A stretch of 64,000 nucleotides of DNA from Saccostrea cucullata. Its lineage: Eukaryota. A model generated the notes under the pieces. It did not search any database. It was given only the letters and a program-made list of their open reading frames with translations, and was not told the origin of the DNA. Positions 33,460 to 59,864 of the stretch are shown piece by piece. Position numbers and translations under genes: made by a program. Position 1 is the first letter of the stretch; the number at the start of each line of letters is the position of its first letter. The DNA lies in contig NW_026932690.1 of assembly GCF_032062105.1 (NCBI RefSeq), positions 186,001 to 250,000 of the forward strand, written 5' to 3'.

Positions 33460-36400
33460 ATGAAGAGGACTTACATATTTACTTTTGTGCTGTTTATTGA
33501 GGAGATTCTATTTGTGTTTTTATATTTTCTGCGTTTCAATGGGCCGTACAGGAGTCTCCTGATAGGTAAGACTTTACTGTGCTCATTGTAATTGTACACA
33601 GAAACATATCAAACAGAAAACTAGCCTTCATCATACGTAGACATTTTCTGTCATTCTATTTCATCAAACAGTCAAATTGTTCAATCCCTGTACATGTGCA
33701 GATAAATGAGTCAGAGAGAATTGTCGATACGAGGAAAATACGGTAAAGGCCAAAAAAAGGAACCACCCATGTAAATGGCACCTTGTTTATATGTGTAGCT
33801 CTTTATAATGGTGTTGACAAAGGGTTGTAGTGAGAAATGAATACAGATAAATACAGGCATAATAGTTATGTACTTGTATAGTCTAGTATAATTACTAGTA
33901 ATTGTTTACGGTGACACATATTTCAGCTGCCGCTCCAACACAAAGACCCACTCAATTATTTTTGTTAAATGGTTCAGTCGAGGTGGAAATTCAGACTCCT
34001 TGGGATGAAAGACATGGGGAGTCAGAAGCCCCAGAGGTCACATTGGGGAGGAACCTGTTCCAGTCAAAGAAAATGTGAGAATTCTAAGTTCATTAGCAAA
34101 CATAAATATACTGAGCATAGCCAAGAAATACTAGTATGTGTATGTTCTTAACACTATGTTTTAATTCGTATACATTTTAATTCAGTCATGGATATTCTAC
34201 CAAACTAGAAAGCTTTAAAACTTAAAAAGATAAAGACAAAAACACTTGGACAAATATAAAAATTAAACTTGGCTTTGAGGGATTTTTAACACAAAGACTT
34301 TTGTATTGTGGTATCAATATCTTCTTATAACACAGTTTTACCCTCTGTGCATCACCATCATGGTAAAAACCATCCACCATTTTTTCCACGTTTAAAAAAG
34401 ATATATTTGAAATTAAAAACTGAAACATTGTGCAACTTTTGTTTATTAAACAACATGTAATTGTATACTGTTGTATTGTATTGAAAATTTCCTTTTCACT
34501 TAAGGAATTAATCATTTTCTAAAAAGGAAAAGGTAAAATTGTGATAGAATACTGATAGCCTCACTAAAGCGTCTTTCTTCTTCTTAGAAAATAAAGTACA
34601 TTATATCTTATCCGCGAAAATAGTCTTCCTTCCACTAGCTGTTCAGTAAGTTGTTTGCATTTTCACTCCGGAAATTAACAGTCAGCACTACACTCCTTGC
34701 TCTGTCGTACTGTATCAGTTTGTTTTATTCATAAAACAAGATCATATACTCACACAGGGAACATGTTTTGTAAATTACTCATTGACTTTTTTCATGTTTC
34801 AAAGAATGATATTTTTATTTGTTTCAAGTGAACTTCCGGTAACGTCAAAAAAGGTCAAAGAAGGTCATCCCAACGCCATTCAGGAGAGGTCAGCTGAAGG
34901 TATCAATGTGACGTCAATTACCGTGAATGACCCTTTAAATTGACTAAATATGTCACTGTAACTTTGATGCAACCATAAAGGTGCAAAAAGTAGAAGCAAT
35001 TCAATGACTTCTGTATTCGTTGGGGGTTTAATAATTGTCTGTTTCTGTTTTGTAGATGAGTGTAAGTTTTTGAAGGAGATAGGAGATATGTCTATCAAAG
35101 GAGCACCAACATTTAGTCTGGCCATTTTGCCAGAAAACGGTGAGGATTTTTATTAATTCATTTATTTATTTTTACTTTATTGGATTATATAATATAAGTA
35201 AAGCTCACAAAAAATTAAATAGCTATTGAACAAGCATACAGACAGCGACTTAAATTTTATATTGGCTTCAAATTTTCTTTCGTGAACCTTCCCTTATTTA
35301 AATAACAAATAACAATATACCACTATCATCAGCATATGTATGGAGTTTGTGTCAGAATTTCCCAGTTGATACGCAAGAGTATGCTCTACGTACGAACAAT
35401 TTTTGAATCAAGGAAAGCTATGGAGGAAAAAGTTGATGACACAAGGATATCAACAATCTCAGTTAAAGTCAATTACTTTCTTGATAATTCTATGGTCGAT
35501 ACAATGACCTTGTCAGCAAATTTAATCTATCAATATTAAATCGAATGACGACTGACCTTTCGACCATATTGTTAGGCCATTATTTACTAACCAAATCGTT
35601 GACGGATTTATCCCCATTTACCGAACATAACAAGGAAAACATGACAGGTGTTATCTATAGCTGGGGGATATATACTCCTTCATGGCAACTGATCCTGTCT
35701 TTGATGCTTTTGGAGACCATGTTTGCTCTGACCTACTTTGTATAGTTACAATTAACATTGGAGTTTGATTATACTGTTTTTATCTTCATATTTCAACTCA
35801 AACGTATTTTAATTCGTTAAAACTCGTATCAGTCGTTTTCGGATTAACGACATATTGACAGCCGTCTTTGTTGCTTTATTTCACAGTGATCATCATTATA
35901 CAGAGTTATCCTATCAACGAATCCTTGCGGTATCTGTGTGGTATGTGTCTACTGTCATTCTTACTATATTGAATACATATAGTTATAATTCTTGGATAAA
36001 ACGGTAGAATCTTTAGTAAATTCAGAAATTTTTTAGTCACTTTGTGTCTTTATCTATGAAATCTTGCAACTTTTTCTTAGAACAAAAGTTTTTGTATTAA
36101 ATGGTCAGCTTGATCTTCTGTCATTTGCATTAATTCACAAGCGTTGGAATTCTCAAACTGATATGTTCATAACTATGATAAATACATTTAGATAAGGTGA
36201 ATTATTGTGCAAAGACGTTTTAATGGTCAGAAAATTACTACCAAGGCTATCAACACTTACATTTGTTTCTATATATATTTCATCTGAATCTTTCGATTTT
36301 ATATCATGTTATTCCATATCTTTTGTTCTGTTATTGCTGTGTTTATGTCATAGAAAGATGTGTATATACTTCGAATTATATACATGTACAGTCATGGGAC

Positions 36401-39400
36401 ATAATTATTCGCCACCTTGTATGCAAATGGCGCCGTGTTTTCGCTTACAAAACGAAAGTGGGGGTTCCGCGCTATAAATAGAAAAAAAGATTTTCCCTTC
36501 TTATAAAAGTTACCGTGTCAAACAACTAAAATAATGACGTACGTATACACATTTTTTTTTCGTCTGCTGTCAGAATAGTTAATGTAAACACCGGTGTTTA
36601 AAAATGGGTCGTTAGGGAAAAGAATTCGGTACTGAAGTAAGGGAACTGATCATAAACTCGTACAAAGTTAACAGAAATGTGTCAAATTTATCAAGTACTG
36701 TACTTTAGGAATACCCAGATCTACTGCGAGAAGTGTTATTAAGAAATTTAATAATTATCTTGATGTAAAAAATCGTCCTGGAAGACGAAGTCTTTATTCA
36801 CGGATAGAGACACTAACAAGCTTTCTCGGGTTATAAAGGACTTACAAAGATATTACAGGCATAGTTAATGAAAACAGGGATCGTAAATTCTGTACAAAGA
36901 CTGTGGAGAGAAACATCAGACAGTTGGGATATGTACGGAGTTTCAAAGAAGAAGGTAGAAGTTCGTGAAGTAAACAAGAAAGAACGTGTTAAATAGTTTA
37001 AGGATAGAAAAAAATTGGACAGTTCAGCAAAAATAGTGTAAATGGATATTTAGCGATTTATCAAATCGTTGTTGGGAACAACAAGAATGTTTACAGTGTA
37101 TGTGTGGAGAAAAGCGGACGGGAAGGATAACCCACAGCTCGTGTGCCCTGCCCCGCGGTGCAGGCTTAGTATCATGATCTGGGGATGTGTATGTTATTAA
37201 GGTGTGGGCACATTAACTGATGTATATACTTGATGAAGTGATCAATCGATTGGCTTGCGTGATGATTTGCATAAACGCCGAAGGCGTTTATGCATAAAAT
37301 TATCATGCAAGCCAATCGATTGATCATCTTCATGAAATTGAAAAATCTGACAGTTATTCCTTATATTTACATGCTTTGATTCCGCCAATCCACGTGCTCC
37401 AAGGCCTGCTTATATGTCTAGCTATTTGTTCCGCCGTGCACGTGTTTTTTTTTTGGAACCGCACCAATACATTGATGAAGAAATAAAGTACATTTACATT
37501 TGGTAATTTTATCTCGGACAAAGACATTGGAAATGTAAATATAAGGTAATATTAATGCTCAAAAATACTTACATATTATTGAAAACAATATTTTGCCAGT
37601 TATTGCGAGGCATTTCCCAAACAACGATTACGTTTTCATGGACGACAATCGGGCAAAAAGTGTTAAAGATTACGTGGTAAATAACAATGTTAATACATCA
37701 AAATGGCCAGCACAATCACCAGATTTGAACATTATAGAGAATATTTGGTTACGTGTGAAAAGAGCATTATTCATGTCGTACACTCGCAATAAGATCTGAT
37801 GGCTGAAATTCAGACCGTGTGAGAAAACATTCCGATAAACTACATTAAAGACCCTTACAACTCCATTCCAGGACGAGTAAGGGAAGTTATCAAAATAAAT
37901 TTGACTAAATACTGATATACTGAGGTAAGATCTTGATTTTATTGATTACAAACAGTGAAGAAACTTCATAAAGCGGACGTGCGTTTTTGTTGGCCATTTT
38001 GAAAGTGGCGAATATTTATGTTCCATGACTGTATGTACACTTGGTATAATATGTATATTTGTAAACAAATACTAGTAAAGGATCTAAACATTTAAGAAAA
38101 GTTAAGATCAAAACAAACTGGAATAGTTGTTGAAAAATTTAGTAAAATGATTTTGTTTTTTTTCTTCATTTTAGCAAATGGAACACTTTCTGCTGATCCT
38201 GCTAACTTCTCGTCCGCTGCGAAATCGTGTTCCCTTCGAAACATTACAACAGTGAATAGTGGTTACTTAAGCAATATCAGCATAGGAGAGCCTTGCTGGA
38301 TACAGAACGAGACCATAGATAGAGAAGGTCTGAAACTTTCTTATTCTGGACGAACAATCTATTTCATCAATAAATCTATACGCTGGTTCACGTACTTGTT
38401 AGGGCTTAAGGTTTTAATATGTTTGAGAGGTGTCAGTTTATTGTATATGATACACGTATGAATGGATATAGAGATAACGAAGAGTATTCTACATCAAAGT
38501 CCATAAAACAATACAAAATAGGAGCAGAGCAAGCACGGATCTCCGAAACATCAGAGGTGGGATCAGGTGCCATGGAGGAGTGAGCATCCCCTGCTGACTG
38601 GTCACACCCGCCGTGTTCTCCTTGTCATGGTCGGGATATAACGGGAAAATCCGACGTCAATTCAATGTGCAAATAATGGACTAACAATTAGAATGAAAAA
38701 CGGCAGTCAGCTTTTGATTTAATGCTAAATTATATTTGCTGACAAGGTCATTGTATCGACCATAGAACTTACGAAATGATTTTAAACGACACTGTTGATA
38801 TTCTTGTTTCATCAACTTGCTTGTAAATAATTTACCTCTTTTTAGGACTCTATGGTATTTTTTATCTCAAGCTCACCAGAATATATCGTATCGACGTAGG
38901 GATGGAAATTAAAATTGTTAATTGATAATACGTCGCCGATATATCTAAATGTCGAGTTGAAGGCCACAGCAAGTGCTTTCTTCTTTTCACGCATAAGATT
39001 TTGCTCAAAGTCTGCTTCATATGAATACAAAAATAGGTCTGCTAATAACCGAGCGCAATTGGTACCCATGGGAATTCTAATAGATTATTAGTATTGGAAG
39101 ATCTTGTCTCCAAAAACCACATTGATATTTTCAATCAGAAACTCAAGCATCTTTTTGATGTCAAATTCAGAGTATATGTACTTGTGTGTGCAATCAGAAT
39201 GTGTTTAAACAAAATTATTTTGCAAATGACCAGTGGCCAGTTTACAAGTTCCATTTTTATTGAAAAAGCAGCTGTCAATGATATAAAAAAAAGCCTGGAC
39301 TTTACTTAATCGTGGGGAATGGTTGTGTATAAAGTTGAAAAGTTTTTAAGCTGTTGATTTCGTTAAAATCTTGTGGTTTCAAATTGGCCAAAAGTTCTTT

Positions 39401-42400
39401 GGAATTTAAGAGTATCCACATCTGATTCACACCACTTCTTGAATATATTGTTGCACAGTTCTCCTGGAGTTTTTACTTCACTACTGTCAATATCGAAAGA
39501 GTCTTGGTCGAACATTTACTGGAACCCGCAATGTATCTTTGTTTGTAAGGATTCTTATGAAGTTTCGGATTCCAATATATATATATAGGGTAGTTCAAAT
39601 TTATTTTGGCTCTGTGGAATATTTAAAACTGACATGATTTTGAATAATTTCTTCCTTAGAAAGGGAAGTATGAGTATAAGTAGGATACCACTTGTAGAAT
39701 TAAATCCAAGTTCTTCTGAAATACAATTTATATAATGAGCCTTGCAAACGAAGACAATGTTGTTACCTGCTTTATCGGCAGGGACCAGTACGAACTGATC
39801 ATGTAATAATCATCTAATTCTTTTTTTCACTTCTGGATTATTGAACACAGAAGGATATATATGGTTTTCATATTGCCCCTCAATCTTTTAATAAGCGACT
39901 CTTACATGGATCAGATATATACATTTAATCCATTCTGACAAAGTGTCAACGTCTTCTTTTTCATATCTGACCCATCGTCTGGCGTAATTTTCAACAGAAT
40001 ATATATTTATGAAATTGAAGGATCGGGGTTCCCTATATTTAGGACCTTTTAAAATAAGTGATCTATGGTCCTCGTTATTAAATAATAAATTTTATATGAC
40101 TATATATTAAATAGGGTTCCTCTCAAAACAACGAAATTAAATGCCCACGAAACTATTTTTGATGACAAATCAACGAAATTTTATCCCCACAAAAATTTGT
40201 GCTTCTACAGTATATTTACGTCACCTGCAATAACGTGTCCTGCAGGACTATAGCTAAAGGGCGAAGATGAACATGATGGAGGATTATGTTTCAGATAGTC
40301 CATAATCACAGATCCGAGCCTATTTTCTGGTATCAAAGAATCAAAAATTGGACTTTTCTTGGCGTTTTCAAGAAGACTACTGTATTTAAAAGTTTCAAAG
40401 GAACAGAGTAAACAGTGTAAAGGAACAGAGTAAAGTTTGGTGCGAATATGATGAAGACCTAAATGTTGATTTACATAAGGTAGTAATGAATCGAAAGAGA
40501 CGTTGTGTATTGCAGGTTTATTGTAAGATCGATGTCTATGACTACGCTTACGTCTCTGTGTATGGTTAAAAAGTCCCACCACATTTACATTGTTACACTT
40601 TGGACTGGAATGATTTCAACACTATCAACATTGTCATTACATCTATAGGGAAAGGCTGTCCCTAGTTTTCTACTCCAAAATTTCTTTTCGTTGTCTACGG
40701 AAAGGTGTACTGCGACGGACTATTTGTGTGGTGATAAATTTTTTCGAGAATTCTAACTTTTATTGACACAATAGAATGATCAGGTAAATTAAAAAAGTAT
40801 AAAAGCTGCTGACCACCATGATTTATTTGAAATCGATGAACTGATTTTTCACTGCAAGAATGCAAGTTCAGTTTCACATAACCGTGACTATATAAATACA
40901 TTTAACAGTTTTTCTCCATCCTGACATTTTTTAAAAAACGACAAAACTGTAGAATTAGTAGAATTAGTAGGCACGTTTGGCAAATAAAAATTGACTAGCT
41001 TAGGCAAATAATTTCCTTTGAACAATTATAAATGTGATCGGTCATTATGGTCCAACAATCTATAGGAATTCCCTCGGGTACCTGTTACTCCCGTTATTAG
41101 CAGAATAATTCATATGAAGCAGAATTCGATATGATATATCCTGGTGTGCTTGAGATAAAAGATACCACAGGGTCTGACACATCTGTTTCATATTTGGATA
41201 CTAGTATTTTTACTGGGTAAAAACGGCAATAGTTATCTGACAGCAAGGTTTTATGATAAACATGATGACTTTAATTTTTCTATCTTCCCTTACTTATGCA
41301 GCAATATACTTTCATCACTTGCACATGTTTTTAATATATCTCAGTTGATTCGATACGCAAGAGCATGCTCTACGTATAAACAATTTATAAATGAGGTAGG
41401 TTACTGAAAGATAAATAGCTGAAACAAGACTATCAGCAGTCTCATTTAAAGTCATCATTTCATAAGTTCTTTGTTCGATACAAATAACATTGTCAGCATA
41501 TACAATTTATCATTTTTCATACTAATTGTTAGACCATTATATACTCACCGAATTGTCGACGGATTTTTCCGTAATTTCCCGATCATGAAGAGGAGCACAC
41601 GGCAGGTGTGACCGGTCGGCAGGAGATGCTCACTCATTCATGGCACCTGATCCCATCTCTGCTCTTTTGGGTGTCCGTGTTCGCTTGCTCCAATTTTGTA
41701 TTATTTAATAGACTTTTGAGTTTGAATACTGTTTGTGTTCTCCATATATTTCATTAAGTAACTTTTTTTAAAACAACCAACCGAGTGGACAAATTAAGTC
41801 CATAGTCGGTATGATTGAAAGATAGTCGAGTACTCGATTATACGTTTACATCCCTCCTATACATATTAAGATTAGCAGCTGATTGTCCTTGAGCATGCGT
41901 TGTAATTTAATGTTTCATTTGTCCATAACACTAATCAGAATCTGGTTCTTAATTTGTAATCCTTTCTACAACCTACATTCGCATACATTCGTACAGTCCC
42001 TTTGATGGAGTATTTAAAAGGAGGTACAGTTTATTGCTTAAGATGTGATAAATCAATCATTATCAAATTAATCTTTAATATATTTTTTTTTCCAATTTAA
42101 TGACGATATTACAAATTATGTGGGTTTTTTAAAAAAAATATCTTATGATTAAAACATCAATGATTTGTAAGCATAATTTAGCTTTTCAAGCAGTAACAGA
42201 TATCAACTTTATACACAACCATTCCCCACGATAAATTAAAGTCCAGGCTTTTTGGTATCATTGACAGCTGCTTTTTCAATAAAAATGGAACTCGTAAATT
42301 TACTTACCTGGTAATTGGTCATTTCCAAAATTATTTTGTTAAAACATTCTGATTGCACAAACAAGTGCAAGCCAGGTATGTTACGGATTATGCGTTCCAA

Positions 42401-45400
42401 TCAACAGAGTTACAGAATTCACTAATTATAACTACATTGTATGTAGTGAAGTACTCTGAAGTTTACATCAAAGAGACCTTGAGTTTCCGATTGACAATAT
42501 CTATGTGGTTTTTGGAGACCATGCATTCCAACAATCTATTGGAATTCCCATGGGTAACATTTGCGCACCGTTATTAGCAGACATATTTTTGTATTCATCT
42601 GAAGCAGAATTTGTGCAAAATCTTATGCGTGAAAAGAAGTCAAATGCTGAATGACGTTTTTCATATTAATTGTAAGTCTATTATTTAAACACTGAAGTGA
42701 CGACGGATTTTTCCGTTATTTCCCGATCCTGGCAAGGAGCACACGGCGGATTTGACCGGTCAGCAGGGGATGCTCACTCTATGGCGCCTGATCCCGTCTG
42801 ATGTTTCGGAGATCCGTGTTTGCTCTGCTCCTATTTTGTATTTTTTTATGGACTTTGATATTGAATACTATTCGTTTATCTCCATATCCTTCATCAAAAA
42901 AGTAAGAGTTCAAATAAAATGTATTTCACAATAAACAACTTTTGAAACTTTTGTACTGTTGATTACATGGCCAACAGGACAGCCTGTAGTAATTTTGTCA
43001 TAATTTTTTAATACGCGGTAGTTAATTCGTATTTTTCTTTTTAGAAAATGTATAGACATATAACAAAAAACTTTAAAGATATTCACTCTCCTTTATTCAA
43101 GGACTAACCGACTTATTTTTTTATTTCATGATGTGATCAATCGATTGGCTTGCGTGATAATTTGCACAAACGCGTTCATGCATAAAATTATCACGCAAGC
43201 CAATCGATTGATCATCGTCATGAAATCGAAAAATCTGAATTATTCCTTATATTTACATGGTATTGATTCCGCCAATCCACGTGCTAGAAGCCCCGCTTCT
43301 TGTCTCTATTTGTCCCGCCCCGCACGTGATTTGTTTAAAACGCGCCTATCGATGAACCAGTACATTGATGGAGAAATAAAGTGCATTAACAATTTGTAAT
43401 TTTATCTCGAACAAAGACATTGGAAATGTAAATATTTTGGGATGAATGTATTTTAAAGCACAACATGATAACCTGTTCTTTATATAAATTATTCTGTTAC
43501 TTGACAGTGGCACTTTTCTACAATTATGAGATGAGAACAAATGAAGGTTCATGTTATAGAATAGACCGCAACGAAAAGACAACAATGGCTGCTACAGGTG
43601 GGTGTCCATATTAAATCAAACTCCATATTGCTATAAAATATACCTCAGTATTGTCATAATATAGGACTCAATATTATCATTCGAGGGCTGTTCAATAAAT
43701 AATGTCCTTGGTGCTCGAAAAGAAACAAAAAATGATTTTCAATTATGTATCCTTAATGATTTGACTTATATATTCTCTTTTAATTAAAGCACATGTTCGT
43801 AACATTTTTAACCAATTTCTGATCGTTTTTAGAACACATTTTTGAGTATGACACTTCGTATACTGGATTATGGCAAATCCTCTGATTTCCTGGACTTGCT
43901 TCTTCTTTCTAAAAGGTGTTTTTTTTTCAAGTTAAGAAAATGAAACAAGTCAAAAGATGAAAGATCTATTAATATTGTCGGTGTAACAATTCATTAACTT
44001 TCTGTTTATCTCCAAAACTCCTTTACTCTTTATGGCATATTGGTTTTGACTCTGTTAAGTTGAAATTTAATGTAGTGGATTCCTGATTCTGGTTCCATCG
44101 TCTCATAAACCTTTGGGTTTCTTTTTTTTTGCCAACATTTTCTTGCTAGACTTATTCAGAAATTGCATTGCCTTCATGAATAAGAATTTCACCAACAAGA
44201 CCACTCATTTTTAGAAAAATTGCATATAAAACTATTTTTATGCTTTTGCAGTTCTTTGCTCTTCTCAGACCTTGGCTTTTTTTTTTTTTTGTCAAGTGCA
44301 TCTTATTGTAAAGTTGTTTTGAGGGTTTAAATTAAAGTAATAGATTCTAGTTTCACTATCTGTTTGAATTCCAAAAAAAACTGGATACCCACAATTTTTG
44401 ATTTTTTAAAATAATTGATTAGATATGCTTACACGCTGTCGTTTTCACTCAGTTTTCAAAACATAGGGTGGCCATTGAGTACTAAGCTATTTTACTGTCA
44501 CATGTTTCTTTAAAACAGTGTAAACAACCCCAAAATGATGCCTATCAATTTTGCTATATGTACTAAAGGCAGTCAAACATCATCCATGTTATTTGTTGAA
44601 TTTTGGCTAACGTACATAGGTTGTGGTAAGTTTTTGTCGCCAAGGACAGTACCCAATTTTAATGCCCATTAAATTAATTTTGTTCATTGAAATCCACCTG
44701 CTCATGTGTCTTTAAAGCAAACAATGATTGTTGTTAATGTCACATAATTTAGTAAATATTTCTTTGGGATTCCTAACGAGTTTAACAGCAGTTTTCATGA
44801 AGCGTTTAATTTCACTCTAGTGTACTGATTCTTTACCATTCATTTATAATGCAGTGTCTCGAATAGCATTGTTTTCCAGCTTCTCACAATGAAACTTTGT
44901 GGTGAAAAGTGGTCAAATAAACTGTAATCAATTCATTAAAGATTCATTCATGAGAGAAAGTCAAGCTTAGTGTCGTATTATTTATATTTTGTATGTCATA
45001 GAGCTCATGACATTTTTTTTATTGAAGAGCCTTCGTACAATCCGGCTAATATTGTGTCAAAAAATCAGACTTAATGTACGACTCGTTGATCTTAAGATGA
45101 AATTTTCTGACTCCATATTATCATTAAACTCAGTATAATCACTTAAATCGTATTTCTCATCATTTTTATTAAATTAAATCAATATTCTCATTAATTTATT
45201 CGTCATTAATTTATAAATCTGGCTGAAAATTTGTTTGATATTTGGAGTAAGTGGTATACCACAACTGATTATGTTTATGATTTTTTTAAGAGTTCCACTA
45301 CTTGCCTTGGTTTAAATATCTTTCTCAGTTGAGTTCTTCTATTTACACGGATCCTGTCCTGCTTGTTTGTCAGTCCGTCTGTCTTTCCAACTCTTAATCT

Positions 45401-46162
45401 TTATCATTTTCAACTTTTTTCTCTCTAGAGACCCACTTATCCAATATCAACGGAAGAAAGCATCATTAAGTAAAGGAAATTTTAGCTTGTTCAAATTAAT
45501 GATCACCTTTTCTTAAAGGGCAGGGGTTGGGGGAGGGGTTATCTAGATCAGGCAAAAGAAGGGATTTTCAAACCTTTTTAGGGCTATAAAGCCAGAAAAA
45601 ATGATACTGTATTGGAAGACACAGTATAGTTTAAAGCTGTTCAATTTCTGGCCCCTGATGGCACGATAGAGTCAGAATCCTTTGAACAAAGTACCGGTAA
45701 TATCGGTACATTGTATGTAAATTTTCAAGCATTCTTAGATAGTGTAGATTCAATTTTGCTCCAATCATGTCCCGGGGTAGGGTGTTGCCACGAAAGTATA
45801 AAAGTATGACCCAAAAAATCAGAATTTCATTTTTTATATATAATCAGAAAACAACTGGACAACACTTATTCATACGGTAATCATACCAATATGCAAAATA
45901 TTCCTTACATAGCTGTGTGGAATTAAATTTGCAAAAGTGAGCCCAGAAATCAGGATAGAGCTAAAATCGAGGTCAAAATACCTTTAAACCATACACTCTT
46001 TTGAGGTGTGTTGGAAAACAATATATCGTCAAAATGTCATGAAAATAAATTTGGAAACTTCTTTCTTAAAACTTTTCAAAGAAGAACAATTAAACCAAAG
46101 TATATTTATCCAAAAAAAGCTAGTGAAATGCACTGGAGCACATTTCAATGGAGAATGACTTA

Positions 46163-46207
<45 letters not shown>

Positions 46208-47479
46208 AGTTAAATAACTCAGATCTTTTAAAAATTGCATCAAGGTTTCATTCATTTTCAGATTCGCTCCTACACAAGACAATTCGTGTCATGAAATACC
46301 AAAACTATTCGGTTCAAATCAAGTCTTGCTGTGAAAGGCCGTCTACCACTGATTCTACACCAATTGACCCGGGCACCACTCCCCAAGGTAAACTCCACCC
46401 ACCTACAGTTATAACCACCACCAAATCAACAGGTAACCACACCTCTAACACAAATACAAGATTGAAAATTAAAACTAGTTATTAAGATTGTCATTTTGTT
46501 CCATTTTTTCCAGACAATTCAAGAGCAGGCTACGCCATTACAATATTGCTAATATTCATTGGTGCCATTTTCGCTGTCTTATGTCTTTTTTTCCTGTGCT
46601 GTAAAATTTGCTGCACCCCAAAACGGTTTGTTTTACTTCGTTCTGTTTCATTATCTTCAGATAACTAATTTAATAATGATGTTTAGATTTAAATATGCTC
46701 ACTTTTGTGTGTATAGGCGTCCTTCGTATAAGGTGGAATACGCAGACCCTAGTGACGTCATTGCATCCAGTAGTGGAGCGGAATATTCCACGCCGTATGA
46801 CACATGTAAAGCGAGAAATAGGGTAGTCAAGGTAACTACTAAAACCAAGGGAGCGGGTAAAAACAAAGTATCACTTCGTAAGAAATTAAGTCAGAGATTC
46901 AGTTCTAGACCAAGAGGGAGAAGGCGTGAAAATGATTCAGGATTTAGTGATCTTTTAGAGAGTGACGTAAGCAAAGTGTCAGGAAAGGAGGATCAAATGG
47001 AAAGTAAAGAGGCCCAATATATGGAGATTCCTTTAACAAAATTAAATGTAACAAAATCCTTAAGCAACCCGTCATATTCAAAAGTTGACAGAAAATCCAA
47101 TGGCAGGGGAGATAATGACAAAAAAGAGACTGGTGTTCGATTTACTTTACCGAATAGTGGTCTCCAGGAAAGACAAAAATTAAGTTCACCCTCTCCGAGA
47201 CAAGAAAGGGTAGACTCCCCTTATGAATCATTACCAGACAAAGACAAAAACAACAAAGTTTGTGAAGTGAGAAACAATGAGAAGAAAAATTTAACAGAAA
47301 ATCCTTATGCTGTTCCAGAATGTGACAAAGAACGACCTATTCAATCCAAACCACCGGAAACAGATACATCACGAGACAGTCCTTACGCGGAAATAAATCA
47401 CGTGTTTCCAGTTGATGGAGATGCCAAAGTGAAAAGGTTTATAAAGGCTATGGGGGAGGGGGAGAACCCTTACATGTGA
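33460..47479 (+). CDS. Receptor copy B: single-pass type I membrane glycoprotein with tyrosine-motif tail, 535 aa; exons 33460-33565, 33927-34074, 34829-34899, 35056-35139, 38175-38327, 46262-46432, 46514-46625, 46717-47479
   Basis: Eight phase-compatible exons summing to 1608 nt with no internal stop; hydrophobic N-terminus; ectodomain with NGS/NGT/NFS/NIT/NIS/NET/NYS sequons and a Thr/Pro stalk; TM YAITILLIFIGAIFAVLCLFFL followed by CCKICC; tail motifs YADPSD, YSTPYD, YMEI, NPSYSKV, SPYESL, NPYAVP, SPYAEI, NPYM. Confidence 0.82.
35290..35790 (+). mobile_element. Penelope-like retroelement 3' fragment
   Basis: cagcatatgtatggagtttgtgtc..cagttgatacgcaagag..ttctatggtcgatacaatgaccttgtcagcaaa, then degenerate ctccttcatggcaactgatcc terminus. 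Confidence 0.65.
36389..38031 (+). mobile_element. Degenerate Tc1-family DNA transposon
   Basis: TA-flanked TIRs cagtcatgggacataattattcgccac / gtggcgaatatttatgttccatgactg; broken transposase with WIFSD, IMIWGC, FMDDN, WPAQSPDLNIIENIW. Confidence 0.9.
37230..37550. mobile_element. Non-autonomous element with ~110-bp palindrome nested in the Tc1; second copy at ~43125-43435
   Basis: tgatcaatcgattggcttgc.tgat..ttgcataaacgcc-gaa-ggcgtttatgcataaaattatcatgcaagccaatcgattgatca hairpin; inner inverted repeat ttattccttatatttaca / tgtaaatataaggtaata. Confidence 0.75.
38455..40950 (-). mobile_element. Degenerate Penelope-like retroelement with GIY-YIG remnant upstream of the RT (Naiad/Chlamys-type domain order)
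   Basis: Minus-strand remnants in order: ..HRFQINHGGQQLLY.FNLPDHS..RILEKI..TAFPYRCND (40.6-40.9k), KGPKYREP, FVLVPADKAGNNIVFVCK, IPMGTNCARLLADLFLYSYE..FRYIGDVLSINN, then the conserved 3' terminus. Confidence 0.8.
41065..41755 (+). mobile_element. Penelope-like RT/3' fragment
   Basis: ggaattccc..ggtacc..ccgttattagcaga, cttgagataaaagataccacag, tcagttgattcgatacgcaagagcatgctc, 3' terminus at 41595-41700. Confidence 0.8.
42215..42890 (+). mobile_element. Penelope-like fragment inverted relative to 38460-39330
   Basis: 42215-42370 is the reverse complement of 39180-39330; internally deleted RT then 3' terminus. Confidence 0.8.
43682..45035 (-). mobile_element. Degenerate mariner-like transposon
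   Basis: TIR cgagggctgttcaataaataatgtc / gacattttttttattgaagagccttcg-TA; 1.35 kb is the typical mariner size; no intact ORF, strand tentative. Confidence 0.65.
46165..46208. repeat. (GA)n microsatellite
   Basis: Direct inspection. Confidence 0.95.
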
Positions 47480-53560: not shown

Positions 53561-56500
53561 TCACTCATTTGTGCGTGTTCGATTTTCCATTGTCTGTTTT
53601 ATTGCTGGAGAAGGCCTGGGCGTTTTGATTGGGTGTGATCTCTTGGTTCCCGTATGGCTTACTTTATGTCTTCTGAGGGCGTGGATCGAACCGAACGAAC
53701 ACTGACAGGTTTCACATCGGTAGGGAAGCTGACCTGCACGGATAGGAAATATATTTCATATAGTTAATATCACAACCATCTGTACATTTATGCGACTCGC
53801 TTCATAAAAATTTTATGGCATATGTGATTACTTTTCTATTTTGTCGCGATAAATACTTTTATTATACTTTCATGTAAAATACTAAAATCTGATTGGTTTA
53901 GACGCAGTTAACAATCCGTTCTATTACCCTCAGCCTTAGCAACACACGTGACAACGGGTAACACAACGGTAATGTCACATGCGTGGAAATTATGCGCGTA
54001 CGGTTCACCGTAGAATTCTCAAAACGTCAGTTGCGCGTTTGAAAGAACCGGAATAAACTTGACGCCAATAAAAGCTTGCGTCCGATGTAGCTTAATTGAA
54101 AACAACAAACGACAGACGAAACATGTTTGCGAGTGCAGAAATAACGAAACTTTATATGATAAAGGACTCTTAGAGAATCAAACAAACAATAAAGAGGTCA
54201 GTTAATCTTTTTCGCAGTAGCGGGGAGTTTGAAAGCTTTCTTAACTTGAACGTAAAGATGATCGACGATTTTTTTTTTTTTGCTGACATCCTAAATCAAT
54301 AAGACATTCAGTATAATACTGACGCGTCCGTTGACAATGGTTTTCCTTGGGGTGTCAATTTCAACTGTTACCCTCCAAAACAGGCACCATTTATATATTA
54401 TCACATGTTAATGGAATTTGTGTCTCGCAGTTGATTCCTTACGCCAGAGCAAAATTTACGTAAGAACAATTCTTAAACGAGGAAATCTCTTGACAAACAA
54501 GTTGATACTAACAAACAAGGATACTAACAATCTCAACAATTTGCAAATTCTACGTTGATACAATAACCTTGTAAGTAAGTACAATCCAGCATTAAGGAGG
54601 CTGGATGTTGACTAATAAACCATCATTTATTATTTTTAGATTTTAAATCTTTAGCTGTCAAATATTATTTGACAAAGAAAAATTTCATTTATTATAGTTT
54701 GAAATTTCAAAATTTTTGCATCAATATATCTCTAAATGGAGCTCTTCTTCTAAAGGAGATCAATATAGTCTAAAAATGGCCACAGCCATCCAGTCCTCTT
54801 AAGTCGAATGCTGACTCACGTTCTCCAAACAAATATTTAACAGATTTTTTCTGTTTTCCTGATCATATATACCAAGGAGCACACGGCAGGTGTGACAGGT
54901 TGACTGGGGATGCTTACTCCTCCTAAGCACCTGATCGCTGTTTATGTTTCTACAGGTCCGTATTTGCTCTGCTCCCGGTTTGTATTATTTCATTATGAGC
55001 TTGATTGCTTTGTTTTACGTCACTTGAAGCGTCACAAAGATTAAAATCATTTGATCAGTCTTGTTATGAATTCTATGAGCTCCGAATTTAATATTCTATC
55101 CAAATTACTTGCAAACATGGAGATCTAACATTGTTATAAACCGTACTCACAACTAAATACCCCTCTCATAAACAAATACAATCCTATTCGATGAATAAAT
55201 GAACTACTACTTACATGAAATATTTAACTGGCATAAACCTTTGCTACTTGTAAGTCATGGTTTTGAAACTCATTTACCGGTTACTCTTACCAGTAATTAG
55301 CAAAATTATTAAAGATATATAGTTCAATGTGTTTTATTTTCTGTACTTCTTGGTATTTACAGAGCACGATGTTGACGCGTCATGAGATGCACAGTTTTCA
55401 ATTTAATAACAGTTTACTATAAATAGTTTAGATTTTTTAATTTATTGTCTTTAATTTCCTGATCCTGCATTGATTCTGACAGAAATTACACCAATCAACG
55501 GTTACTGACTATAAACTTAATTGTATTCTGACAGCTGCATGAGCGACAATTTAGTCGGGAGAGGGGGCTTCAATCTTACTTGTGTGTTGTTCAAGATGTT
55601 TCTTCAGTCCAGAGGAGTCATAGAACTGTCTGTTACAAATACCACAGCTGATCTTCAGACCGTCCTTGTGAAGCTGCATGTGTCTCTGAAGTCCACTATC
55701 AAACCGGAATGGTTTCTTACATACAGAACATTCGTAGTGTTTCACAGACTTCTCGAAATGTGTCAGGTCGTGGCGTCGTAAGTGAGCTTTGTCGTAAAAT
55801 CGCTTTTCACACTTGTCACATTTGTACCTCAGTATCTGGTCTCCGTCCTTCTTCTGATGCACGTTTGCTTTGTGTTTATTGAGATTACCAAGCTGGGAGC
55901 ACCTGAACGGACACAGATCACATGCATGAGGACGCTCTCCCGTGTGTGAGCGCATGTGTCGTTCCAATATCCGAGGCTCGAACTTTTTTATACAAACAGA
56001 ACATTCTTTAAGCAAAATTTCTTTCCTCTTTTGAGTATTGTCGACTTGCTGGCTGCTGATCACACTTTTCACTATCGATGTTTCCTTTTCTTTCGATCCT
56101 TCTGTCTCAGGTTTTCCGGAACACGGTTTCTTAGATTTTGAAGATGGCGACTTTTTATATTTAGCACTTATAAATTCGGTAACTTTTTCGTAAGATAGGT
56201 GCGACAAATGTTTTTTGTGAATATGATGATAAAGATTTTTCTTATAATTAAATGTCTTCCTACAAAAAGAACATGTCGACAAATTGTCGCCTGTGTGAAT
56301 GTTTGAATGCTTAAGTAGACCGTTCGTATTTTTAAATTGCTTAAAACACACTTCGCATTTGTTTTCTTTGTGAGTCCTTTTATGAGTTTGATAATCTGAA
56401 AACGATTTATATGATATCCCACATTTTTCACAGAAATAGCGAGATAGTTCGGAACTACACCGTCTGTATGTCGCGGAAGTCGGGAGCTCGCGCGCGGCGC

Positions 56501-57512
56501 GCCTTTTTGAATTGACAGAACGACTTATCTCCCTTGGCATATAGGTGACGTACTGACTAATGAGATCATCGTCATCAGACGAACACTCTTCATCAGTAGC
56601 GCCACCTGTAGCCCGTGGGCTTTTGTCTACGTCATTTCTATTTGACCCGGAAGTGACGTTCGATTGCTTTGTTTTCATTCCTTCCCATTCATCACCCTCG
56701 AGTGGTTCGAATTCGGTCTCCGTCTCATTTCCGTCGTCAACACCCTCCATTTTGTCACGGTGAACAATAGAACCGGCTAACTGCACTTGTTCAGTATTAT
56801 CTTTTTTACAGTCTCCACTCACAGGAAGTTTATCAATACTACCATTGCTTCCATGGTTATCACAATTTTTCATGTTTTCAAGTGCACACTCTGTGCGAAT
56901 ACGATAATCGTTCTCTCCATTAATATTTGTAATTTCGACATTATTAATGTCAGTTAAGTTTTCATTCATAACAGGGGATTGACATCGAGAATCGTCAGAA
57001 TCTAGAATATACTCGTACTCACACTCTCCGACATCGTCACACTGACCAACATCGCCAATATCACATGTGGGATTCACGACGCCATCAACAGGATCGATAA
57101 CCAATTCAAACGGTTTAGTTTCTATTACAACTTCAGCTTCATTATTCGTATTTGTATACCCATCTCCATGAATAATACATCCATCATTCTGTATGACTCT
57201 CTGTTCCACCACTTCGTTTTCATTTTTAATGAAATTTAAATTAGATGATTTCCAAGCTCCCGGATGACTTTGACACACTTGTATCGGTGGAAAGCCACAC
57301 ATACTGTCCGTATCACTTCCTCCCTCGCCGGAATCCTTGTATCTGTCCGTCACCGGGCACTTGTCGACGGTCACAGGATTTTTCTCCGTGAACAGGTCTT
57401 GTTCCTGTTTTAGAAATTTAGGTAAGGTTTCTGAATTTCCTTTGACCGCCAATTTGAACACGAACTTCCCTTTTCGTATTTCTAGACGCGTGGTGTCGCT
57501 GTCGTCCAACAT
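53561..57512 (-). CDS. C2H2 zinc-finger protein, 9 fingers; coding exons 57512-55580 and 53733-53561
   Basis: The 669-aa ORF has an acidic N-terminal half and 8 CxxC..HxxxH fingers including an HTGERP linker. Acceptor TTCTCTTTCAG near 57534 and GCCATG at 57512; donor ACAA|GTAAG joins CCGTGCAG|GT to add QLPYRCETCQCSFGSIHALRRHKVSHTGTK..NE*. Upstream coding exons cannot be excluded. Confidence 0.9.
53855..54402. mobile_element. Interspersed non-autonomous repeat in the ZnF intron (related fragment ~51315-51560)
   Basis: Shared tatactttcatgtaaa.tact..aatctgatt and gcg.ggaa.ttatgcgcg.acggttcac.gta with 51320-51500. Confidence 0.55.
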
Positions 57513-59864
57513 GGCGTCACTGGTTTGACGTAACTGAAAGAGAACCAATTGTAAAGACATTAGTTCTAATTAAGATTTCTTTTTTCCTTCAAAATTTATA
57601 TGTATTAACCACGTAGAAGATCCAATTACAGCGCATATTGATATTATTTCTTTCTCCCAGTAAAACTTTTTTTTCCCACTGCATCAGCTAATAATATATC
57701 CATTTTTCTGTTTTCATCAAGAATCACATGCAATCTGGAGTACTGTATGAAGTTCACTGGCCTTTATACACGGACTTACTCATCTACTTATCTCCTATTG
57801 TACAGAGATAAGATCTGTACTTAAATACAATAGCAGATAACCCCGTTTTATTGACAATCCCCTCTATATAAATCCATCGCATATGCAGCAGAACATTTAG
57901 TCGGAAGATTCTGAATGTTGCCAAGAGAAGGAGAATAATTAGAGAAGGAATGCGTTCTCCACGGCGCCTCTCTATCACTGAACCAGTATCCAAACTGCCA
58001 ACGTATCACAAAATAATAAATGTGCGAAGCTCGCAAAAACTGAAATACGAAAGTCAATATTGGACGTTATCACTGTTCCTTGGGGGAAAAAAATAAAACA
58101 TCATCCCCTTATCACTTGAACAGAATCCAACGGTGCCAAGTTCATGATAAAAGTTACAGTCAGTCAGCAGTTTTCCAGATTAATTTTTTTTTAATTCAGT
58201 TTTTTTGTAATTATCCATTATGTAGATATTTTTTTAAAAGAGTTTATCAGTAATACTAGAGCAGCACGGAAACCTTGCCTCTCAAAGGTCTCACCTAAAT
58301 TGATACTGACCCGGACATTATTCAATGGGAACCTCCAAGATATCGTAAAACTACGCAATAGGACGCTAAGCGTTACTCAATAACCACACATTTCCCGGAA
58401 CAAGTATATAATTATATAAAAGCTGGTTTCGAATTTGTTCACATAACTAGGATACTGTTACCTGAGTTGACATAAGAAGCAACTCTATGATGAAAATGAG
58501 AATATTTATTTTAACGTTATTTTCGGCAATACGCGTGTGAAGTTTTTAATTTTAAGGTGGTGATTGGCTTTGAAATGTTTTTAATGAAAAAGAATTCCTA
58601 CAGAAAATATTTATTCTCATCAATTTCGACAACACGCCAATATACAATTATGTATTATTACATGACCAAGTTTGATTTTTTTTTTTTTAAATAGTATCAG
58701 TGAGTGGGTACCAGTACTGATTAACTAATCGTTTATTTTGGTGGCTTTTTGTTGAAATTGTGCATAGTGTAGATTAAAGGGATCACCAAAACATTGGCTT
58801 AGAAGAGAAAATTGCAGTTTTCCGCATCTTTTCTTCACATTATTCACTTTACTCTGCAATGTCTCTTGTTCACTTTAAATCAACAATATAAGCACGTGTC
58901 TAACTCACCACAAGCTAACATGAAAAATATGAACGATCCTAAGAATAACTTTATATTGTTAATCAAAGGTATCAGGGGGGAAAATAAGCAAACAAAATGA
59001 CGCACGAATGCAGAAACAATCTACATGTGAAAAAAAGAATCCATCAATTCAAAGGCATTTTTATACCCCATTAAACAGAAGTTCTGTGTTGTTTAATAAT
59101 TCCCAAAGGTTCGGAGAATAAAAGATCTTACCATGTAGCGACGCAATCCATCCAGTTGCAATCAGCAGATAAATTAACGAATCATTATTAATATTTCATG
59201 CCCCTCATTATAACGTTAAAATTTTCATTTGAATTTGTACTACACCTTGATTCTTCGGAGACAATAATGATTTAATTTCCTCTTCTCTGAGTTACGCTAT
59301 TTTTTCTTCTACCCCGAGGGCGGTGTTTATAAATAGAGAATTCCTCATGGGATTAACAGCGTGACACCAATTACCAGGTGCCCGTAGCCTGGGGCGATTA
59401 CTTATAACTGAAAGTCTAACTCTTTTGTCACCGGCCCATTGTTACCCTGTTTGTGGATTATAAAATTCAAACACCAAGCACTTGGTAACTAACGAAGTGT
59501 CCTCTTTTTATTTTCTTTGGTTGTTTAGACAAAGAATGGTTCCCGACTGGCCAAATTGATTGCACACTACATCTATCCTCCGTGTGTGCGAGTCATTGTG
59601 AAACAGTGTTAAATATAAAATAAATATCCTACAAAGGCTGGTGAATTTTCTTGGATCTCTGCCAAACCAAAAATAATGGCTTCCTCGTCCACTGCCATTT
59701 TCTTGTATTAAATACCCCTTGACCACTGGTCACGCTTTTCAAAAACAATTTTCTTTTGATAGATAATAGAGAATAACCACTGATAACAGAATAGTAAAAA
59801 TCTTGGAATTGATATTCAGGTTTCAATTAATCGCAGGAAAAGAAACATTTAAAACCACACTCAC

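Follow-up and report, generated by a model that had tools for sequence, protein, structure and literature searches.

We present evidence that a pair of tyrosine motifs, shared by the tails of a membrane receptor and a small membrane adaptor that neighbouring oyster genes encode, constitutes a real, ancient and bivalve-restricted candidate docking module. Both proteins are encoded in the window analysed here, a stretch of 64,000 nucleotides from Saccostrea cucullata (GCF_032062105.1, NW_026932690.1, positions 186,001–250,000, forward strand). We give about an even chance to the proposal that their shared juxtamembrane segment, likely derived from one old duplication, serves as a phosphotyrosine dock for p120RasGAP, acting mainly through the second motif of the pair. 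What the analysis establishes is that the motifs exist and are conserved, that both genes give spliced transcripts in a close relative, and that the oyster has a RasGAP gene in which the ligand-contact residues are kept. The class of motif is already known; its carriers in this family, the spacing of 14–15 residues and an element downstream of the motifs were not found elsewhere in the searches made here. In the literature, no paper was found on 'YXXPXD' or, judging by titles and the beginnings of abstracts, on these oyster adaptor genes; main-text searches, with most subscription journals and supplements outside their coverage, found six of the family loci unnamed.

The genes of the window and their tandem motifs

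The window lies in an assembly of 1.17 Gb, and protein searches equate the two carriers of the motif pair with uncharacterised S. cucullata loci: receptor B is LOC134235790 and the adaptor is LOC134235793 (100% identity). They are arranged head-to-head on opposite strands, 36 kb apart. The receptor B model (33460–47479, plus strand) is an open frame of 583 residues with GT-AG introns, encoding a type I protein. Its ectodomain (33460–46432), backed by the open model and by RefSeq isoforms, is spread over 8 exons (33460–33565, 33927–34074, 34829–34899, 35056–35139, 35887–35940, 38175–38327, 43508–43597 and 46262–46432). These are followed by a transmembrane (TM) exon (46514–46625) that ends in phase 2, encodes a cluster of juxtamembrane Cys residues and has both flanking junctions in RNA reads, and by a tail exon (46717–47479) with 10 tyrosines, whose junction is also crossed by reads. 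The adaptor model (11352–10084, minus strand, GT-AG introns) has 189 residues, with a very short ectodomain, an N-terminal TM helix inside its first 35 residues and no Pfam domain over the cut-off. Its first coding exon (11240–11352) agrees with the protein record P0001; it carries the start codon, the TM helix and, next to the membrane, Cys and basic residues, and it finishes in phase 2. The tail exon (10084–10540), covered by RNA reads, holds both sites along with two YxN motifs and, at the C-terminus, PYSCI. The RNA reads come from a close relative of the source, being mostly 90–99% alike. The TM/tail junction of the receptor is crossed by 44, 14 and 26 reads in three runs and by one contig in a fourth, and that of the adaptor (10540/11240) by 36, 3 and 14 reads and by one contig. 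Of the read variants listed, three fall within the adaptor motif, and a reading of the codons shows that none of them changes a residue (24 further variants are not listed).

Both proteins display the pattern YxxPxD-x9-YxxPYD, with the two tyrosines 15 residues apart. In receptor B, site 1 (YADPSD, 46739–46756) and site 2 (YSTPYD, 46784–46801), which is the core of the module, lie on the plus strand, with Tyr codons starting at 46739 and 46784 and the motif ending at 46801. In the adaptor, site 1 (YTDPSD, 10480–10497) and site 2 (YATPYD, 10435–10452) lie on the minus strand, with Tyr codons starting at 10497 and 10452 and the motif ending at 10435. The peptides, positions and 15-residue spacing given for both proteins in an earlier note on this DNA are thus borne out. 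The columns common to the two families are precisely Tyr, Pro+3 and Asp+5 of each site and, in site 2, also Thr+2 and Tyr+4. The window has two occurrences of the tandem pattern and none of 30 shuffled windows has any; the two are its only places among 455,504 six-frame codons of the window and 45 partly overlapping loci. Among PDB sequences the receptor motif peptide matched only designed beta-propeller repeats and the adaptor peptide matched nothing, and a metagenome scan yielded 84 pattern matches, of which 0 were confirmed. Beyond the pair, the two YxN motifs and PYSCI of the adaptor tail, and several PY motifs and YMEI in the receptor tail, are kept across orthologues. As these motifs are conserved, each tail is likely to recruit further partners besides the ligand of the motif pair.

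The receptor B ectodomain yields a structure model that is confident over about residues 111–258, and it may resemble C-type lectin-like receptors. It matched no Pfam family over the cut-off, no Foldseek entry at E <= 0.001 and no entry of the Atlas; a PDB sequence search gave only zinc-finger noise, and the match list of a wide structure search was taken up by a C-terminal helix. These nulls are equally compatible with a new and with a known fold. An alternative GT-AG junction (46385–46512; 7 reads in one run) shortens the Thr/Pro-rich stalk exon, and the stalk differs in length among orthologue isoforms too. A short exon (34829–34899 in receptor B, 17762–17832 in receptor A) ends in a basic ERSA/KRSA site, possibly cleaved by a convertase, upstream of the Cys-containing domain; exons of this type are present several times in O. 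edulis isoforms.

'Receptor A' (16195–25415, plus strand) is modelled as an ectodomain-only copy of 290 residues with GT-AG introns, 86% identical to receptor B over one exon; it has neither TM exon nor tail, and hence no motif. Exon 8 has lost its splice donor, so that translation would continue past it as far as a stop; this read-through is visible in RNA as loose read ends, and RefSeq merges receptors A and B into one gene with mixed isoforms. C. virginica has an ectodomain-only copy of its own (P0035, 83% identical to the C. virginica receptor), which suggests that a secreted or decoy version has arisen more than once. Further features of the window include a 29-bp tandem array immediately downstream of the adaptor (7090–9816), a 166-bp satellite-like repeat between the adaptor and receptor A (13720–15250), and, upstream of receptor A exon 5, a 25-bp array whose units each copy a splice acceptor together with the start of an exon (18341–19251). 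A 672-residue open frame with several C2H2 zinc-finger-like repeats lies at 55551–57569 on the minus strand.

Common ancestry and conservation of the segment

The segment comprising site 1, the linker, site 2 and a downstream hydrophobic element is likely, on sequence comparisons, to have reached receptor and adaptor from one old duplication. The pairwise significance check proposed in the earlier note came out clearly: local alignment of the two tails scores 98, higher than any of 5000 shuffles (mean 38.8, maximum 77), and BLASTP of the pair gives E 1e-8. When each tail was searched against the 1.17-Gb genome, the sole non-self match was the other gene among the best candidates scored, such match counts being lower bounds. 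The genome-wide E-values, 0.026 and 0.0057 for the tails and 0.038 for the motif alone, are modest. Both genes have the same exon layout, namely a TM exon of 112/113 nt, a phase-2 intron and a tail encoded in one piece, although introns of phase 2 are often met behind TM exons. Both have orthologues in S. echinata, Ostrea edulis and C. virginica, and near-adjacent locus numbers link them in four oyster species, with contigs equally long.

The earlier note had also adduced the match at the DNA level. Over the motif, 43 of 75 nucleotides are identical (14, 20 and 9 of 25 at codon positions 1, 2 and 3), and 7 of the 11 identical residues share identical codons, against 4.55 expected (P about 0.11). 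The protein match already predicts such a resemblance, and we rejected it as independent evidence. The note had further described the rest of the tails as diverged. Beyond Y2+18, counting from the tyrosine of site 2, they are indeed unrelated (z <= 1.7 in 9 of 9 adaptor-receptor pairs), but the segment in common is longer than had been recognised, extending through the hydrophobic element at Y2+12 to +17.

The dissimilarity of the distal tails and the non-significant codon identity, along with the readiness with which short linear motifs arise repeatedly, would suit two unrelated genes that acquired the motif by convergence. Such an origin seems extremely improbable in the face of the reciprocal genome matches, the proximity of the genes in the window and their linkage across four species, the common exon layout, the identical spacing and the shared downstream element.

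A profile of 8 adaptors and 4 receptors, searched against 1.84 billion proteins, gave 12 matches at E <= 0.001: 8 from oysters, two from Pinctada, P0041 and one leafhopper repeat protein; none among the named matches is from a vertebrate. The leafhopper protein (P0040, E 1.8e-4), which is without YxxPYD, was discarded as a chance match. Outside the motif, the Pinctada protein P0039 is adaptor-like, with z of 4.0–6.2 against 4 of 5 adaptors and 1.6 against the fifth, compared with at most 0.9 against 5 receptors. P0041 is receptor-like outside the motif (z 3.3–6.8 against 5 of 5 receptors), and P0038, also from Pinctada, leans weakly toward the receptors (z 4.5 against 1 of 5). As pearl oysters have separate receptor-like and adaptor-like relatives, the duplication is older than the oyster/pearl-oyster split, which is Palaeozoic. 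Relatives of the module were found in oysters and pearl oysters only in the searches made here. Of the old inverted duplication put forward in the earlier note, the duplication itself is supported by the reciprocal genome matches, the shuffles and the Pinctada relatives; the inversion, of whatever age, fits the head-to-head layout.

Family searches gathered 95 proteins, of which 60 contain YxxPYD; these records are redundant and do not represent independent events. Among the 35 records without YxxPYD, the 21 inspected start 3' of the motif, are ectodomain fragments or represent the discarded leafhopper match. Two close YxxP sites are present in 54 of the 60 and site 2 in all 60, with a spacing of 15 in 50 records, 14 in 3 and 21 in 1. 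Site 1 is absent from six records, all adaptors: in C. virginica both its Tyr and its Pro are replaced (2 records, a RefSeq model and an independent contig), and four other adaptor records have Leu for Pro. Site 1 of the adaptor thus appears dispensable in some lineages. In 8 oyster receptors, 20 of 21 motif columns are invariant (6/6 in each site and 8/9 in the linker), compared with 50 of 213 columns elsewhere in the tail and 32 of 148 across the core of the ectodomain; the basic stretch upstream is near invariant as well, like the whole receptor segment. In 9 adaptors the invariant columns number 3/6 in site 1, 4/9 in the linker, which retains KR-x-S, and 5/6 in site 2.

The hydrophobic element, [GARK]-hydrophobic-hydrophobic-x-V, begins six residues downstream of site 2 (Y2+12 to +16). 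It reads RVVKVT in receptor B (46820–46837, plus strand) and GFLAVR in the adaptor (10399–10416, minus strand), both at Y2+12 to +17. It stands in register in 49 of the 60 records; in 11 others, receptors of the C. virginica type, it is shorter by one residue. In P0039 the unit of site 2 plus element occurs twice. From these record counts, set against the variable spacing and the lost site 1, the most stable unit appears to be site 2 with the hydrophobic element rather than the 15-residue pair. The earlier note had envisaged selection on a bidentate docking site, but a fixed 15-residue ruler for it is not supported; it had also named variation of the motif or spacing among orthologues as evidence to the contrary, and such variation was found in the spacing and in adaptor site 1, but not in site 2.

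RasGAP and competing partners

The earlier note had named RasGAP as the known partner of such paired sites, and the published ligands make this plausible. PMC10470053 reports that all nine validated RasGAP ligands carry Pro+3, and that the tyrosines of tandem ligands are spaced by 6 in EphB, 18 in p190RhoGAP and 19–28 in Dok proteins. According to the same text, the long-spaced ligands (18–28) bind with Kd of 10–30 nM, and EphB4, with a spacing of 6, binds about 100-fold more weakly (2 uM), mainly through the N-terminal SH2 domain (N-SH2). In the solved N-SH2 structure, as described in PMC6938330, Pro+3 occupies a pocket formed by Phe230, Ile241, Tyr256 and Leu262, and Asp+5 is hydrogen-bonded to Tyr256 and Ser260. 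The oyster motifs have Asp at this contact position, at sequence level. In the p190RhoGAP and Dok1 peptides the first site is pY-A-E-P-x-D and the second is pY-S-x-P (PMC10470053); the oyster receptor, with Y-A-D-P-S-D followed by Y-S-T-P-Y-D, has the same site order.

The oyster p120RasGAP gene (RASA1), with SH2-SH3-SH2 and GAP exons, is located at about 546790–556500 of another contig (G000 C17301, L041–L042). It was located via its SH2 exons; a RasGAP Pfam search missed it and gave other GAP genes. Its exons align to the solved RasGAP domains. All 15 invertebrate RasGAP records have, without exception, the equivalents of Arg188, Arg207, Ser209, His229, Phe230, Tyr256, Ser260 and Arg398; that of Leu262 is kept in 14 and that of Ile241 in 13. 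The RasGAP reading is therefore better founded than in the earlier note, Asp+5 being a RasGAP contact and the contact residues being kept in the oyster, but its fixed bidentate form is not supported. Elsewhere in the genome, three near-identical SH2 exon pairs, one of them inverted and all of which we take to be SHP2-like, lie on G000 C13359 and C13551 (L011–L013, L025, L026, L031); they may be duplicates or haplotigs. The oyster p190RhoGAP gene (G000 C5329, about 92600–115500, L046–L048) has no YxxPx[DE] in plus-strand frames of at least 45 residues over 40 kb, a search that short exons could escape, and so does not serve as a positive control from the same genome; in oysters, the tandem RasGAP site of vertebrates may have degenerated or be missing. 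Complex prediction of the M. gigas RasGAP SH2-SH3-SH2 region (P0097 52–317) with the receptor segment of the same species (P0028 325–365) scored 0.01, the mark to be reached being 0.34; it was run unphosphorylated and without alignments or controls, and counts neither for nor against RasGAP.

We regard RasGAP, engaged via site 2, as the likeliest partner of the module, with a probability that we put near the halfway point. As neither receptor nor adaptor has a kinase domain, ligand binding or clustering would lead a cytosolic kinase of the Src or Abl type to phosphorylate the tyrosines. The pY-x-x-P-Y-D of site 2 would then settle on the RasGAP N-SH2, Pro+3 filling the hydrophobic pocket and Asp+5 meeting the equivalents of Tyr256 and Ser260. 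Site 1, optional in the adaptor, might add avidity via the C-terminal SH2 domain if the linker length permits, and the hydrophobic element could provide a second, fixed-register contact on RasGAP. Recruited to the membrane, RasGAP would damp Ras-MAPK signalling locally. Against this proposal stand the spacing of 14–15, which is shorter than the 18–28 of the known high-affinity tandem ligands, the near-invariant receptor linker, which a passive spacer would not need, and the Asn and Lys that oyster RasGAP has at the equivalents of Arg212 and Arg231.

The principal competitor, less probable yet of appreciable weight, is that the two tyrosines independently dock single-SH2 proteins preferring Pro+3, such as Crk, Abl, Nck or Vav-type proteins. 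In PMC13753828, Pro+3 is common to the ligands of Crk, RasGAP, Nck and Vav3; of the pYxxP peptides used there on tick lysate, one had Crk as its top binder, ahead of RasGAP, and another bound RasGAP. The same paper reports that, in the tick-cell pull-down, no SH2 protein was captured by a pY-A-T-P peptide whose +5 residue is Thr. Going by these results, Pro+3 neither ensures binding nor selects the partner, and they fit a role for the +5 residue. Independent docking would accommodate the losable site 1, the variable spacing and the many SH2 exons in the genome (86 matches), but by itself leaves unexplained the invariant Tyr+4 and Asp+5 of site 2 and the p190RhoGAP/Dok1-like order of the sites. 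The strong form of the earlier note's reading, in which RasGAP binding is strictly bidentate and selection keeps a 15-residue ruler in receptor and adaptor alike, would account for the prevalence of that spacing in both paralogues across the oyster species sampled and for the invariance of site 1 in 8 of 8 receptors, and may hold for the receptor alone. The spacings of 14 and 21, the destruction of site 1 in adaptors, seen in C. virginica in two separate records, and a spacing outside the high-affinity range given in PMC10470053 make it decidedly unlikely.

A very unlikely reading takes the segment for a surface that acts in binding or trafficking without need of phosphotyrosine (an extended peptide for a PTB, FERM or sorting adaptor, perhaps regulated at Ser/Thr) and is a mere lookalike of an SH2 ligand. 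The near invariance of the receptor segment as a whole, which takes in the linker and the basic stretch upstream, the KR-x-S kept in the adaptor linker and the fixed register of the hydrophobic element to site 2 would be in keeping with it; the columns common to the two families nevertheless form the pattern of an SH2 ligand. A further extension of the RasGAP proposal, unlikely as it stands, envisages a three-part module of an optional pY site 1, an obligatory pY-x-x-P-Y-D and a hydrophobic strand 12–16 residues downstream acting as an undescribed second RasGAP contact, borne by a bivalve-specific trio that splits an ancestral receptor. The full receptor, the ectodomain-less adaptor and the ectodomain-only copy would then be its sensing, signalling and decoy parts.

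Relation to known systems and implications

The closest parallels are p190RhoGAP-A (pY1087/pY1105) and Dok1 (pY296/pY315), which, in PMC10470053 and PMC6938330, resemble the oyster receptor in having two YxxP sites, each with Asp+5, the first with Ala+1 and an acidic residue at +2, and the second with Ser+1. They differ in their spacing, 18–19 as opposed to 14, 15 or 21 in the oyster family, and in being cytosolic, whereas the oyster proteins span the membrane; the carriers are not homologous. Their binding has been measured (10–30 nM), while the oyster pair is known from sequence. We keep the latter out of the high-affinity tandem class since its spacing falls short of 18, although it may work alike; P0039, at 21, is the sole record of 60 within the 18–28 range. 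EphB4 (pY590/pY596), according to PMC10470053, is like the oyster receptor a type I receptor with two YxxP sites in its juxtamembrane tail, but it has a kinase domain, which the oyster receptor lacks, and a 6-residue spacing with mainly N-SH2 binding at 2 uM.

The oyster adaptor shares with the vertebrate transmembrane adaptors SCIMP, LIME1 and PAG a very small ectodomain, a single TM helix, Cys and basic residues beside the membrane and a disordered tail with several tyrosine motifs; LAT is likewise a vertebrate transmembrane adaptor of this type III (TRAP) class. The juxtamembrane Cys is a candidate for palmitoylation, a TRAP-like feature. A feature comparison ranked SCIMP (0.89) and LIME1 (0.86) as look-alikes of P0039, as leads only. 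In a search for TRAP homology no Pfam match passed the cut-off, PAG appearing at E 0.076 in one orthologue only, and unlike the vertebrate adaptors the oyster adaptor has a full-length receptor paralogue.

Known tandem RasGAP ligands are spaced either by 6 residues, binding weakly and mostly through one SH2 domain, or by 18–28, binding tightly through both. With its natural series of 14, 15 and 21 and its natural site 1 knockouts, the oyster family makes the minimum bidentate span testable with real sequences. If the three-part reading is true, a downstream contact may exist unnoticed in vertebrate RasGAP ligands; beyond pY1105, vertebrate p190RhoGAP-A/B may have a comparable short run of hydrophobic and basic residues. 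If the RasGAP reading is true, these proteins would be kinase-less membrane carriers of the tandem site and, in animals where the searches made here detected no homologues of vertebrate-style transmembrane adaptors, a candidate inhibitory receptor/adaptor pair of oysters.
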